A stretch of DNA of 64,000 nt, from positions 164,486,001 through 164,550,000 of the forward strand of contig OZ024740.1 in NCBI GenBank assembly GCA_964016885.1. The letters are read 5' to 3'. Source of the DNA: Eledone cirrhosa (Eukaryota). The notes below the pieces were generated by a model. It did not search any database. It saw nothing but the letters and a program-made list of their open reading frames with translations, and had not been told where the DNA came from. Every line of letters begins with the position of its first letter. Within the stretch, counting starts at the first letter, position 1. Positions 255 through 56,044 of this stretch are shown here, one piece after another. Both the position numbers and the translations under genes were made by a program.

Positions 255-470
255 AAAACGAAAAATCAGTGATGCATTTGAACTCAATTTATTGTGAGTT
301 ACAATTGTTTCGCCGGCGGCCAGCTCGAGACGCGTTCATTGTGTGGATTTGTCTGATTCTGGAGCCGCAGGTTCGACGGACACATCTAATGATTTCGGAG
401 CATATTCTCTGTAAGAGCATAGAGTGCTCAACCGGCATACCGCCTATGGAAGCATCTTAGTTACCATCAG
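255..470. mobile_element. Short non-coding PLE-type terminal-repeat fragment (inverted pLTR 255-400 plus direct 3' tail 405-468); same family as 41570-41795
   Basis: 255-400 aligns directly to 41649-41790. 405-466 is the reverse complement of 41571-41630. Degenerate hammerhead on the minus strand (TGTGT ccgtcga ... GAAA CAATTG TA ACTCA). Flanked by TA/GA and CA/TA microsatellites. Confidence 0.6.
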
Positions 471-627
471 ACACACACACACGCACGCACACACACACAC
501 ACACACACACAGACACACGCACACACATACACACACACACACATACACACACACACACACACACACACACATATATATATATATATATATATATATATAT
601 ATATATATATATATATATATATATATT

Positions 628-943
628 AGAAAGTGAGATTTTTTTACAAAATGAAAACGAACCGAGGTGTCCTACACAAGTGAAAGTATAAGGAAAAAAG
701 ATGAAATCTAAAATGCAACTGGAGTCTTTTTTTTATAAAAATATATATTTATTTGGGTCCTTTACCGGTTTCGCAGTTCTTCTGCTTTTCAAAAGTAGAA
801 TTGAGATGGAGGTTTTGTGGTTTTCTCACATCTACTTTTGAAAAGCAGAAGAACTGCGAAACCTGTAAAGGAACCAAATATGTATATATTTTTTATAAAA
901 AAAGACTGCAGTTGCATTTTCGATTTCATCTTTTTTCCTTATA
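628..943. mobile_element. Fold-back mini-element in (TA)n: inverted arms 687-799 / 831-943 plus one-sided tail 628-686; hammerhead-like motif in each arm
   Basis: The arms are near reverse complements. Plus-arm motif CTT-TTGAAAA-GCAG aagaa CTGC-GAAA-cctg-TA-AAG (835-870); the minus-arm copy has GAAACCGGTA. A further family copy lies at about 38710-38870. Confidence 0.75.
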
Positions 944-985
944 TATATATATATATATACACACACAAACACACACAGACATCCG

Positions 986-51440: not shown

Positions 51441-51746
51441 TTGTTTAGACGGGTGTGTTAGTGGCAATATATATAGACTAGAATTATGTCTAGAGAAAGC
51501 TTGTTTAGACGGGTGTGTTAGTGGCAATATATATAGACTAGAATTATGTCTAGAGAAAGCTTGTTTAGACGGGTGTGTTAGTGGCAATATATATAGACTA
51601 GAATTATGTCTAGAGAAAGCTTGTTTAGACGGGTGTGTTAGTGGCAATATATATAGACTAGAATTATGTCTAGAGAGAGCTTGTTTAGACGGGTGTGTTA
51701 GTGGCAATATATATAGACTAGAATTATGTCTAGAGAGAGCTTGTTT
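51441..51746. repeat. 60-bp minisatellite, about 5 near-identical units
   Basis: ttgtttagacgggtgtgttagtggcaatatatatagactagaattatgtctagaga(a/g)agc. Confidence 0.95.
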
Positions 51747-54514
51747 TTTCGAACATTTAATGTTACATAAGAGAAATGAATACCGTCACAAGAGTCTATA
51801 GATTCTTGTAATCCATTAAAAGAAATCGTATCAACATATGTAGAGAGCTGTGACATTGATTCATGACTAAAAATGCATTCGTGAAGTATGTTAGTGAAAA
51901 TTTTGCTAGGTGGCAATCGAAACCGCTTCCACGAACTTGTAACGTCTTGCCTAGAAATCTCATCTCTATTCTCCATTTCTTGCACATTAATGAATATTTA
52001 CAAAAATTCTTTCATAACAGTATATATACCAATGACTTAATAGCTTCTCCGATGAAAAAAAAACGAAAGAATATGTTTGAGCTAAGAAGGATTAAGTAAT
52101 AACTATTTATGGAAATTATATGCGGAATTTATTTGTATGTATATATTTTTTATTATTTGTCTATTATTACCATTCATGCTTGTGTTCATATATTCATGAA
52201 TGTACATTTATAGTTGTGCATATATCTATACATATTCATGAACAGGCATAACATATACTCTTAAATGCATATGCAATTTTGCCTACATACACGTATTATA
52301 CACACATACACACACACACACATATACACACACACATACATATATATATATATGTCCATATTGTATATGCGTAATTACCAAAGAAAACATATGGTTGTGT
52401 CTAAGTGCGCGTGTGTATGTATGTATATTGTTTTCATGCATATATGCGTATATTTATGTATATATAATGCAATGCCTATATAATGTTTAGCATAATACAA
52501 TTTAGATAATTGTGATACACATCTTTCCACGGTATCTGTCCATCGCTCTCTCTCTCTTTTTTCTCTCTCTCTCCATATATATATATATATAAACATGTAT
52601 TATACATCTATGTGTATATATCTGTCTTTTTCTATCAATCCTTTCTTATCTGAAATCAAAACCAAATATAAAAGGACAATAACGTATCAAAATTATGATT
52701 GTTATCTCAGAAAAATATGAAGGAGCTCAACGTATTACTTTTAAAGATTGTTGTTGCAGTTTAACTGTGAGGTGAGTAAAATCTATCGAGAAACACTTTA
52801 GTAGCCGGTTTGTAATTATGTACTATCCAACGACGAACCGGCTGTGTGGTTGCACAATCTCCGTGAATGGACAGCCACATCTACGCCCATTCACAAAATA
52901 CTTTCTTATAAAAGTAAGGACACATTGGACGCAGTGTAGTCGTATCTATACAAAACGTCTAGATGGCCATGGATGGATCACTTATGAAAATCGTCCAGAT
53001 AAATAGCGGTTGGCGTGTGCCTAAATCTCAAGAACAGTAATGTTAAATGTACGGAAAGATGAAATGAACCCAACAGAATTATATGCCTTTCACAAACTCA
53101 GTGACTTCCTGATAATTCGGTATGTCATTCAATGATGACAATACTATGCATATTTATCTTCAGGAGTGTTCTTACAAACTTCAATAAGTTCAAGTACCAT
53201 GACAGACATGCCAACCTCTAAAAACCTAAACAAGGAGGACCATGAAAAAAGTATCCCAAAACAAATGAAAGCTATACCCATTTTCACTAGGGAAGACATC
53301 TCTCACCCACTCCAAAGTGAATCGGACGAGGAGAAGTGGCAGGTCTGCCATGAAGACAGAGAGAGAGAGGTATGATGCTTTTTGTTTAGTCGGAGATAGA
53401 AAAAATGAGAAAGTATTATTTTTAGCTGGTGGCACAGAGAGATTCTATAACAACACAACTTTAAAATTTCTAGTTTCTCATTGCAATGGAATTATTTGAA
53501 CTGTTCTACGACAACAATGCTAATCTTCAGTTACCTCGAATTTCAGATTTCATTATTCATCAGTTTATAAAGCTACCTGTAAAAGGTAATGTAAAAGTTA
53601 TACTTAAATGGAAACAAAATTGATCTAAGCTGACCATAGCATTATGGAAGTGATGAAACATTATTTGATGGTACGCTTGTTTATCGCCTTATATTTTACA
53701 ATAGCTATCCTTTCTATTCCTTGATATTATCCTTATTTGGATGTAGAGATTGCAGTGTGGTTTAAGACATTCACATCAGAATCACGTGTTTGCCGATTCG
53801 ATCACATGCCGGGGTACCATACAAAAGCGTCTTCTAGCATAGAGTGGTCGACTGAAACTGTGCGGGAGCCTGTCTGGTAGATATATCTGAACACACATAC
53901 ACCGTATGTCTATATATATATATATATATATATATATATATATATATATATATATATATACATATATATATATATACAGAGAGAGAGGTATGTAAGATTG
54001 TTTGTGTGTATGTATGCATATATATATATATATATATATATATATATATATATATATATAAATATACTTACGGTAAACATTGATGCAATATATGTGTGTG
54101 TGTGTGTGTGTGTGTGTGTGTGTGTGTGTGTGTGTGTGTGTGTGTGTGTGTGTGTGTGTTTATATATATGCGTAAGTAAAAGATAACATGAACGTATCTC
54201 TGTCGGTTTCAACGATGAGAGCTCCAGATGTTCAGTTCATGGCACGGCATACTCGTTAATTTTGAGTCGCTGTGTATTTGACAGACGCATTCATCTAGTT
54301 TATCAGGGAGATTCGCTGTGACAGTGTGACGAGTATATTTATTTAAATTTCAGTTTAATTTCATTGGCAGAGATTCCATATTGTTTCTGTCTACCAACTT
54401 TCAACCATTCCCTTGGGTTTCCCGAGCAATCGGTGGAACATTCTTGGCCAAAATGCCACCAGTGGAACCGAACCCGGAACCTCATAAAGTGTACGCACAG
54501 TCCCACACTACAGA

Positions 54515-54563
54515 CATACCTGATGATTTCCCTCGAATGAAACAGTTCTAGTCCTGTAGAAGC
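54515..54563 (+). ncRNA. Type I hammerhead motif, intact core, degraded stem I
   Basis: catac CTGATGA t TTC cctc GAA t GAAA CAG ttctagtc CTG TA gaagc. The downstream tail (tactctacta..tattgagtac) resembles the 14564 family. Confidence 0.6.
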
Positions 54564-56044
54564 ATATTCTATATTAAACATGATATACTCTACTATGTAT
54601 TGAGTACCTTACTTTCTGTGGTTACCCTCGATTGAACCAGACACACACACACACACACACACACACACACACACACATATATATATATATATATATATAT
54701 ACATAAATAAATATGTATTCATAAATATATTCACACGCAGACACTCACAAACACATACACATACATATATATAGAGAGGGGGGGGGGGGCGAGTGTAAGA
54801 CAGCTAGATAGAAATTTAGATATGCGCATATTTATGACTTATGTAATATTCGTAAAATCATAAGTATATGCAGGGCTTTATACATAAAATGTGAATTTAT
54901 TAATGATTAAATAATAAGCCTGCTTTGACGATACATTGCACATGCAATGACCTTGATTAACCACCATTCCAGAGTTTTACTCGTGGCGGTGGTAAGGTTT
55001 CTAGATAGCTACTTATGCCGATGATAATGATCAATATTTTACGAGAGAATATCTGTTTAACATCGTCGGTATTTTAAGCGTTAATGCGCAAGTAAATACA
55101 CACAGAGTAACACAAACACACAAACACATAAACGCATACATGTATATATATATATATATATATATATACTTAGATATATATCCATATATTTATATATCCA
55201 TATATACACTCATACACACATATACATACGTACATTTTATTATTATTTATTCATTATACATAAATCTCTCTCTCTATATATATATTTATATATATGCACG
55301 CGAATATTGTTTTTATCTTTTGTTTACTCTTCATGTTCATTTTTCCTCAACAATAGGAACAAGAAGACATTCATTAGATATACGACAACAAAAGTAACAT
55401 AATATATTGTAACTGAAATAAAAACAAAGACAAAGGAATACCATATCTACAGCAGCATTAGCTTCAGGAAGACACACCGTTATAAGAAACTATGCAAATG
55501 AACGAATACTTGAGATTGGCGCGACTGCACTTACGTTTTATTGGACAAAAATAAAACTAAATAAGATGTGGATGTTGTCAAGAAGGAAAAAAATGAAAGA
55601 AAAGAAATCTGGTTTTTAGCTACCTAAATATCTAAGACGCTTGTGTGTGTGAGGTGTGCAACCATCTGTATGAATTTATAAATGTTTATATATAAGTATA
55701 TATACACATCTATGTATGAATCAGTACACAAACCGGCACGCGGCACACATACTCAATTTTTCGCTCTCTCTCTCCCGCTCTCCTATCACCTCTCTCTCAT
55801 TCACATGCACGCATCAATTATTTCCGCCCGCATGGGTATTTTACCCGATTTATATATGTGTATATATATGCGTCTATCTATATTCATATATCTATATATA
55901 TATATCTATATATATATATATATACATATATATATATATGTAAGAATGTATGTATGTATAAATGAGGTATATATTTGTTTATATATATATATATATGTGT
56001 GTGTGTGTGTGTATGTTTACACATATCTATATGTTCATATATAC

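Follow-up and report, generated by a model that had tools for sequence, protein, structure and literature searches.

The 64-kb stretch of DNA analyzed here, referred to as the window, comprises positions 164486001-164550000 of contig OZ024740.1 in the genome assembly of Eledone cirrhosa (GCA_964016885.1; 3.0 Gb, 1796 contigs). It harbors about a dozen short insertions in (TA)n tracts, many of which are fold-backs, i.e., an inverted and a direct copy of the same sequence, only one of which carries a tail, and most of which belong to families with a hammerhead ribozyme fold. These insertions are, for the most part, probably the ends, called pseudo-long terminal repeats (pLTRs), of autonomous Penelope-like elements (PLEs), inserted by double priming at a (TA)n tract nicked on both strands, while the few families devoid of open reading frames (ORFs) would be retrozymes. 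The class as such is not new; hammerheads in pLTRs, inverted copies, tails, (TA)n targeting and PLE-derived retrozymes have all been published, and the families described below are new examples of PLE pLTRs together with a few retrozymes. The comparison set was composed of 80 evenly spaced 10-kb samples of the genome (0.8 Mb). For each family, 10-30 genomic copies were fetched and traced upstream, and the best 40 candidates were scored per search.

An earlier note on this DNA described one layout at twelve insertions, i.e., (TA)n, an inverted copy, a direct copy, a tail on one arm and again (TA)n. Masked self-BLAST identified local inverted arms at nine of the twelve sites (628, 2822, 3672, 7523, 14872, 29791, 31334, 44413 and 45664), with identities of 99.7% over 363 nucleotides (nt) at 14961-15323, 97.9% between 45706-46034 and 46391-46719, and 94.4% at 2833-3297. 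One-arm tails were confirmed, with a length of about 30-135 nt depending on the family and about 165 nt for the element at 28893. The layout does not extend to sites 255, 7331 and 8393, where an inverted repeat of this kind was not detected; at the first two, which are inverted relative to their families, this is because little is left of the direct arm besides its tail, and the fold-back at 8393 is no more than short and imperfect. The suggestion that transcripts crossing the region would contain long double-stranded RNA hairpins is reasonable as a potential of the sequence, as exemplified by the arm at 14961-15323.

Six of the families are PLEs of Hydra type, as judged from the motifs of their ORFs (see below). 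Family F1 is found at 249..474, where an untailed arm (249-410, -) is joined to a tail (407-474, +) and a hammerhead-shaped fold with a non-canonical core occupies 294-385 (-). A long F1-related insertion at 41563..44240 is composed of an inverted tailed pLTR (41563-41809, -) and a decayed body with Hydra-type reverse transcriptase (RT) and GIY-YIG regions and a 3' untranslated region (UTR) from 41821 to about 44240 (+). F3 (2822..3399) consists of an untailed arm (2822-3062, -) and a tailed arm (3073-3399, +) with three-stem hammerheads of U4A core at 2891 (-) and 3239 (+), and F5 (7318..7447) is a deleted fold-back remnant that retains only the 3' half of the hammerhead. In F8 (14872..15331) the tailed arm (14872-15141, -) is followed by the inverted untailed arm (15141-15331, +), each with a canonical hammerhead (15059- and 15225+). 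F9 occurs twice, at 29789..29970 (inverted untailed arm 29789-29844, tailed arm to 29970, +), where only the 3' half of the hammerhead is present, and at 44411..44698 (inverted arm 44411-44466, tailed arm 44465-44698, +), where the three-stem fold is whole and has a C3.A8 core at 44519; a fragment of a sister subfamily at 14575..14725 (+) begins inside loop II and is preceded by unique flank 5' of about 14575. F10 (31324..31768) has an inverted arm (31324-31443) and a tailed arm (31441-31768, +) with a hammerhead at 31508 (+) of canonical core and long stem II.

Two further families are of Neptune type by motif. F2 (628..943) is composed of a tailed arm (628-833, -) and an inverted untailed arm (824-943, +), with U3:A8 hammerheads at 792 (-) and 838 (+). 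F11 (45664..46728) comprises a tailed arm from 45664 (-) and an inverted untailed arm (46391-46728, +), which carry U3:A8 + A13C hammerhead variants at 45850 (-) and 46575 (+); a solo F11 fragment is located at 3470..3664 (+), with an A13C variant at 3511. Between F2 and F3 is a decayed, 5'-truncated Neptune-type PLE (899..2810, +) with RT and GIY-YIG remnants at 899-2109, a 3' UTR and a pLTR in which a decayed U3:A8 hammerhead is found near 2577.

The ORF-less, retrozyme-like families are F4 (3672..4281; a tailed 479-nt monomer at 3672-4150, -, and an inverted untailed arm at 4152-4281), whose hammerhead at 3937 (-) has a canonical core but a decayed stem II base in the window copy, and H289 (28886..29511; a 595-nt monomer with an arm at 28886-29432, -, and an inverted tailed arm at 29435-29511), whose U3:A8 hammerhead at 29043 (-) is intact. 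To these F6 (7524..7950) can be added as a probable ORF-less 544-nt monomer, with an inverted arm at 7524-7566, a tailed arm at 7567-7950 (+) and a core at 7623. Parents were not found, in about 2 Mb of fetched loci, for the families at 8393, 24519 and 54515. The first, F7 (8393..8625, +), is a decayed short fold-back with a hammerhead-like remnant, and the second, at 24340..24640 (-), is a PLE-like pLTR with a hammerhead at 24519 (-) that has a 1-nt deletion in the window copy; a Neptune-type RT fragment at 25421-25844 (-) lies about 0.9 kb upstream on the same strand, with no established link to it. The 54515 family (54516..54640, +) is short and very abundant and has a three-stem, canonical-core hammerhead that lacks stem I in the window copy; nearly all of its copies start within a few bases of stem I, in which two subfamilies differ by compensatory changes. 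A further hammerhead-bearing repeat, absent from the earlier list, is found at 48990..49120 (+; core at 49034).

Hammerhead folds are present in the window well above chance. A strict three-stem descriptor yielded four matches (15225+, 15059-, 31508+ and 29043-) compared to 0.23 per shuffle (maximum 2, n = 30), and a looser version that also admits variant cores yielded 12 compared to 1.5 (maximum 5). A previous descriptor (long stem II, U3:A8, U.U or A.C at the stem II base) gave 8 compared to 0.4 in 40 local dinucleotide shuffles, while the first, narrower one gave only 2; most of the motifs escaped narrow descriptors on account of a long stem II, a frequent U.U or A.C pair at its base, or a stem III that forms a true hairpin. 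Among the 150 listed of 226 matches from an Rfam scan of the window there was no hammerhead family, microRNA models matching microsatellites being dominant, and folding of nine motifs with monomer energies (z from -0.1 to -2.5) lends the folds weak support. At 7331 and 29791, however, the fold is reduced to its 3' half, and several other copies in the window are truncated or decayed. Additional hammerheads proposed at 2575, 24483, 28961, 41689 and 54515 do belong to hammerhead-bearing families, although the last copy lacks stem I, while at 14564 the 5' half of the presumed motif is unique flank; family matches begin at about query position 95 (window 14575).

When the core was defined by C3-A9, G12-A14, C3:G8 or U3:A8, UH and stems I-III, a canonical or U3:A8 core was found in F2 (22/23 copies), F4 (11/13), F5 (14/16), F10 (28/29), H289 (7/7) and the 24519 family (8/8). 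The same elements are present in the 54515 family. F8 is canonical in 74/84 copies, with eight more carrying U3.G8, and N7, a free position, is variable in both F8 and F5. Other cores are non-canonical and fixed: U4C + A6U in F1 (53/55), U4A in F3 (23/24), C3.A8 in F9 (30/34) and A13C in F11 (31/33); sister families of F1 retain the canonical core. Because non-canonical cores are fixed in four abundant families, the fold is likely to be kept partly as a structure rather than as a catalyst. Covariation, the lack of which the earlier note took as grounds for refutation, was found in the stems of the F1 group, i.e., F1 and its sister families: for a structure drawn by eye on the same 14 related sequences that were scored, which had been collected by sequence similarity, 90.5% of the cells were paired compared to 83.9 +/- 0.8 after shuffling (reached in 0/500 shuffles), with 30 double-change cells compared to 11; changes on both sides are seen in 12/30 pairs, and slid controls gave 27-42%. 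The claim that self-cleavage sites would be scattered through transcripts was overstated, since the core or stem I is missing from many copies, non-canonical cores are fixed in four families and, in addition, PLE hammerheads are reported to cleave poorly in vitro (PMC4209133, PMC11167929).

The identity of the insertions is evident from their longer genomic copies. Nine of the twelve listed insertions, representing eight families, extend in such copies into PLE ORFs with RT and GIY-YIG, in agreement with the PLE identification put forward in the earlier note. Within 1.5 kb of flank, the ORF is reached in 17/24 loci of F11 (45664), 10/23 of F3 (2822; seven at a consistent 1.0-1.15 kb), 5/29 of F2 (628; a GIY-YIG ORF) and one colinear locus of 24 for F10 (31334), where ORFs were also found in one extended locus. 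With a second, upstream probe it is reached in 17/25 loci of F8 (14872) and 7/24 of F9 (29791, 44413), the latter having appeared ORF-less with terminal probes (0/29), a result thereby overturned. F1 (255, 41563) is linked in 4/12 extended loci to the same Hydra-type ORF family as the window element at 41821-44240, and F5 (7331) in one locus, L341, with three copies. F1 had been considered as a fixed-length non-autonomous element, a view that was dropped after 30 additional loci were found to have an upstream sequence in common that leads to an ORF. Single ORF matches near F4 (L006), F10 (L157) and F8 (L015, L026) belong to neighboring elements and were not counted, and three F3 copies 4.3 kb apart on contig C2 are local duplications rather than a tandem PLE. 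The PLE copies are mostly frameshifted and have a single ORF with both domains, followed by 3' UTRs of about 1.0-1.4 kb (about 0.2 kb in F5).

The same short sequences are also found at the other end of the element. In four loci (L280 of F9, L133 and L345 of F11, L077 of F2) the tailed end continues not into (TA)n but into a short UTR and an ATG-led ORF, so these elements are pLTRs that serve as 3' end and 5' leader at once. In F9, F11 and F2 the pLTR is thus seen both upstream of the ATG and 3' of the ORF; the upstream copy was not seen for F1 (0/23 ends), F8 (0/33) or F10 (0/22), with L118 checked. Because the families extend into PLE ORFs, they are the pLTRs of autonomous PLEs and do not constitute a separate class of ribozyme retroelement.

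With respect to clade, GIY-YIG is C-terminal to RT and adjoins the 3' UTR in all linked families, an order other than that of Naiad/Chlamys, which have an N-terminal endonuclease (EN). Pfam placed GIY-YIG above and RVT_1 at the cut-off in the F11 ORF; it missed two of the four genomic ORFs (both Hydra-type) and, apart from a weak GIY-YIG, the decayed PLE frames of the window. F1, F3, F5, F8, F9 and F10 are putatively of Hydra type on account of motifs read by eye in translations (RWK-like, here RWR; DKT; a CxCX5C linker; CxxC and CxH around E and N), the N-terminal ones being seen only for F9 and F3. F2, F11 and the 899-2810 element would be of Neptune type, with DKG and a CX4CxxC linker (CX2-5CxxC class); both were read in F11 and the linker in F2, at a resolution that does not separate Neptune from Nematis.

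Of the two alternatives given in the earlier note, the second, i.e., non-autonomous ribozyme elements, applies to the elements at 3672 (F4), 28893 (H289) and probably 7523 (F6), but not to the ORF-linked families. In at least 20 of the 40 places scored for F4 (482-nt monomer; 19 of the 40 not being listed individually), the tail is directly followed by the 5' end of the element itself; the junction was also seen in contigs of an independent run, and the arrays reach about 1.55 monomers. H289 (595 nt) has head-to-tail junctions in L336, L287, L124 and L202, the first of which contains two complete hammerheads at a spacing of 595 nt, while the circle of F6 (544 nt) is closed in one locus only, L029. 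The longest ATG-initiated ORFs in the doubled monomers of F4, H289 and F6 are 35, 76 and 72 amino acids, none with a match to a PLE protein. ORF-less head-to-tail monomers were not found for F1, F2, F3, F5, F8, F9, F10 or F11. F4 and H289 are therefore likely to be non-LTR retrozymes, as F6 probably is. Direct-repeat hammerhead pairs spaced 310, 467 and 639 nt were also noted in unbiased samples (L306, L301 and L322, respectively) and may represent additional families of retrozyme-like or partial-tandem type.

Each family has two discrete 3' ends about 30-135 nt apart, and a fold-back typically combines one of each. In F9 copies from loci that had not been fetched for this family, 38/44 pairs are tailed + untailed (p = 5e-7 against 0.5); the corresponding numbers in probe-selected, i.e., biased, sets are 28/28 for F8, 30/32 for F1, 17/18 for F4, 10/10 for F10 and 10/12 for F2. 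Rare variants are common to both arms at 0.10-1.13 per 100 nt within pairs, compared to 0.02-0.15 between loci (about 2-20-fold). The arm that extends further 5' may be either one: in 48 F9 pairs it was the untailed arm in 20, the tailed arm in 6 and neither in 22, and the untailed arm was longer in 14/28 F8 and 5/8 F4 pairs. The combination of strict pairing, shared variants and either arm being the longer favors twin priming on the 5' leader of a PLE RNA.

At their 5' ends, arms accumulate at specific positions. In F9, 108/130 arms start at +38..+60 from the core (a 23-nt interval), and 32/41 F2 and 23/24 F1 arms start within 10-12 nt of an anchor. These pile-ups sit at YAGT/YAGA motifs, which resemble the initiator consensus. 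The main pile-up of F9 falls inside loop II and, therefore, most F9 copies cannot form the ribozyme. Ribozyme cleavage as the origin of the 5' ends was rejected because there is no peak at the cleavage site (F9 +86, F2 +30), and a 3' splice-site reading was set aside since templated sequence often extends several bases upstream of the AG.

These observations can be accommodated in the following scheme, which we regard as probable. The endonuclease of the element would nick a (TA)n tract on both strands, and the RT would start two cDNAs on the 5' leader of a single RNA, at two internal sites and with strand displacement; the two 3' ends may then correspond to the two internal RT start sites known from an anole PLE. 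The pile-ups would mark transcription start inside the pLTR, such that the cDNA runs off the RNA after 100-300 nt, rarer long copies could arise by read-through of tandem elements, and the two cDNAs would be joined head to head by microhomology. ORF-less families are likely copied in trans by PLE enzymes from multimeric or circular RNA. In twin priming of L1, two primings at a staggered target generate a head-to-head inversion joined by microhomology, as is envisaged here; in L1, however, the arms are derived from adjacent, non-overlapping parts of the RNA, whereas here both cover the same sequence from two fixed starts. That the pLTR contains a promoter is known (PMC2377424).

A number of observations weigh against this scheme. 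Pairs in F3 (17/49) and F11 (5/19) are not cleanly tailed + untailed, internal repeats confusing their ends, and variants shared between arms could stem from gene conversion. F10 has no pile-up (26 arms spread over 0-268 nt), starts in F3 and F8 are broad, F11 offers no pile-up support because the test failed on its anchor, and there is no clear cap-derived G at the 5' junction (G in 17/72 F9 arms). With the anole enzyme in vitro, start-site use is reported to be equal between strands, from which alone strict pairing would not be predicted (PMC11167929). A LINE-like (long interspersed element-like) 3' end at 23550, which we take to be RTE-like, and a short interspersed element (SINE) at 38270 also fold back, and the inversion step may thus not be PLE-specific. 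In addition, F4, H289 and F6 have no significant similarity to the eight pLTRs (best z 2.6), so that a partner PLE was not identified among them, the clades were assigned from motifs alone, and the covariation was scored on the alignment from which its structure had been drawn.

The strongest competitor is plain PLE debris, in which cDNA would be made from the 3' pLTR of a full-length RNA and the pile-ups would be stalls where the RT drops off at stem II or pyrimidine runs. We consider this somewhat unlikely. Copies that pass the pile-up do decay gradually towards the ORF, the starts map to the 3' side of loop II in F9 and to just below a long pyrimidine tract in F8, and the broad starts of F10, F3 and F8 and the missing cap G fit as well. 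The F1 and F2 pile-ups, however, are located about 35-45 nt upstream of the ribozyme, off its stems and at initiator-like motifs, and the tailed end is found 25-90 nt upstream of the ORF ATG and is therefore the 5' leader of an intact element. Truncation of PLE insertions, the first alternative of the earlier note, applies to nine of the twelve insertions, but it is not random. In the same vein, the ordinary debris with which that note contrasted its proposal, where every family consensus leads to a PLE ORF with random 5' truncation, agrees with the eight ORF-linked families, but not with the pile-up of 5' ends or with the two, probably three, ORF-less families.

A self-primed, snap-back copy of the first strand could also generate the inverted arm, with the one-sided tail resulting from endonuclease resolution (PMC3846280, PMC8557442). 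Tailed + untailed pairs and shared variants would be expected to the same degree from such a process, and many apices are near-perfect palindromes (22/48 F9 pairs within 5 nt). Yet a copy cannot outreach its template in the 5' direction, which the untailed arm does in 20/48 F9, 14/28 F8 and 5/8 F4 pairs, and a tailed arm cannot be copied from one that lacks the tail; even though later partial deletion of one arm could explain some of the longer untailed arms, we find this route improbable. Least likely of all is that all or most families are self-standing, with short copies themselves transcribed and re-copied in a SINE- or retrozyme-like manner, as is true of F4, H289 and probably F6: short copies vastly outnumber long ones and contain the pLTR promoter sequence, terminal probes reach an ORF in 0/29 F9 and 0/24 F1 loci, and the 54515, 24519 and 8393 families have no parent found, but eight families are colinear with PLE ORFs, there is no 5'-end pile-up at the cleavage site, and fold-back junctions vary from copy to copy, which means that each was formed anew from a linear template.

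The elements of the window can be compared with known systems (for related work, see PMC13282606 and PMC6765202). PLEs are described as forming partial tandems and an inverted copy with a 30-40 bp tail and a bias for (TA)n, and the Hydra clade includes the Octopus family Hydra-1_Obim (PMC8557442). The Hydra-type families share with EN+ PLEs of that clade the C-terminal GIY-YIG and, as far as each ORF is seen, the RWR, DKT, CxCX5C, CxxC and CxH motifs, as well as (TA)n targets, the pLTR hammerhead, the inverted 5' copy and the one-sided tail (PMC8557442). They differ from those described in that many families coexist, at an estimated 10^4-10^5 copies each and mostly as pLTR only, with tails of 75-135 nt instead of 30-40 bp, a long stem II and fixed core variants (PMC8557442). 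F11, F2 and the 899-2810 element resemble Neptune-type PLEs in DKG, the CX4CxxC linker and the order RT then GIY-YIG; PLE minimal hammerheads are reported to be of U3:A8 type, to occur in pairs on opposite strands and to have low activity, and U3:A8 minimal hammerheads are found here too (PMC4209133), while the A13C fixed in F11 sets this family apart. In the case of PAc, a Poseidon element of Anolis, the RT is reported to start internally at two sites, with both strands being cut and extended and the ribozyme being dispensable in vitro, and the two starts bound the tail at an AT-rich target, as would be the case here; unlike in PAc, the tail here is upstream of the ATG rather than within the ORF, and genomic pairs strictly combine both ends (PMC11167929).

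Retrozymes are described as non-autonomous PLE derivatives, with one of nine dimers cleaved (bioRxiv 10.64898/2026.07.22.740005). F4, H289 and F6 are like metazoan non-LTR retrozymes in being dispersed and ORF-less, with head-to-tail monomers 480-600 nt in length and a single type I hammerhead (PMC7229834; bioRxiv 10.64898/2026.07.22.740005). They differ in that the arrays seen are shorter than two monomers, that they bear the signature of PLEs (an inverted arm, two ends and (TA)n) and that stem II is 45-57 nt; no parent pLTR was matched. Literature outside most subscription journals and Repbase contained no report of start-site pile-ups, strict end pairing or these core variants, which is weak evidence of absence.

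The abundance of these elements is a property of the genome, and the emphasis that had been placed on their density at this locus is not justified. Because motif and fold-back densities are near those of the 80 samples, the window is typical: the strict descriptor has 83 matches in 0.8 Mb compared to 4 after shuffling, i.e., 6.6 per 64 kb, and there are 16 fold-backs in the window compared to 147 in the samples (11.8 per 64 kb), 11 of them with (TA)n on both sides compared to 5.8 per 64 kb. Extrapolation with the strict descriptor of this analysis yields about 3.0 x 10^5 hammerhead-like motifs in the genome (bootstrap 2.0-3.9 x 10^5), higher than the 120,000 reported for axolotl (PMC7229834), although the descriptors differ. 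Rough insertion numbers per 0.8 Mb are 25 for F9, 20 for F3, 18 for F8, 17 for the 54515 family, 9 for F2, 6 each for F5 and F11, 5 for F1, 3 for F6, 1 for H289 and 0 for F4, F7 and F10.

The window also contains other repeats; its ORF list contained no host gene besides repeats, exons not having been searched for, and a general repeat search found only the (TA)n tract at 59.5-60.4 kb, an interrupted tract of 900 bp (59500-60416). At 16694-19878 (-) are the decayed remains of a non-LTR retrotransposon that has AP endonuclease, RVT_1 and zf-RVT domains, and the related piece at 56515-57785 is a second, likewise decayed, relative in opposite orientation. The LINE-like 3' end at 23550-23720 is a fold-back in (TA)n with one longer arm and has linear copies elsewhere (15 fetched loci matched), which suggests that fold-backs are not confined to PLEs. 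A very abundant SINE-like repeat (151 fetched loci matched) is found at 31981-32097, 38270-38441, 47597-47720 and 49118-49212, the copy at 38270 itself being a fold-back, and a partial Rfam tRNA match at 56312-56369 (-; 34.1 bits, gathering threshold 29) is probably a tRNA-derived SINE head. Old, imperfect fold-backs without a copy in fetched loci are located at 39522-39581, 58426-58717 and 63265-63360. Further short repeated ends adjoin (TA)n at 30810-30895, 3413-3474, 4466-4568 and 60-215; they recur across the fetched loci and are probably pLTR tails as well. A minisatellite (51441-51746, 60 bp x 5.1) and a 404-bp tandem duplication (15815-16622) were also noted.

In repeat annotations, short pLTR pieces such as these are likely to be mis-filed as SINEs or as unknown. 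Their value is that of a large natural data set on how PLEs form tandem and inverted insertions and on what the ribozyme is for, where direct predictions for the bench follow from the strict combination of tailed with untailed ends, the sharpness of the 5' pile-ups and the four fixed core variants. We tentatively offer a more far-reaching possibility, namely that PLEs spread mainly "strong-stop" copies of their 5' leader, made by a dimeric ribonucleoprotein on one RNA from two fixed sites and hence always tailed + untailed, in which the hammerhead fold would be structural, catalysis would have been lost in several of the most successful families, and ORF-less circles would hijack the same route. 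If this is true, the approximately 300,000 hammerhead-like motifs and the very many perfect hairpins of this genome would constitute a natural record of an unresolved step in PLE integration.

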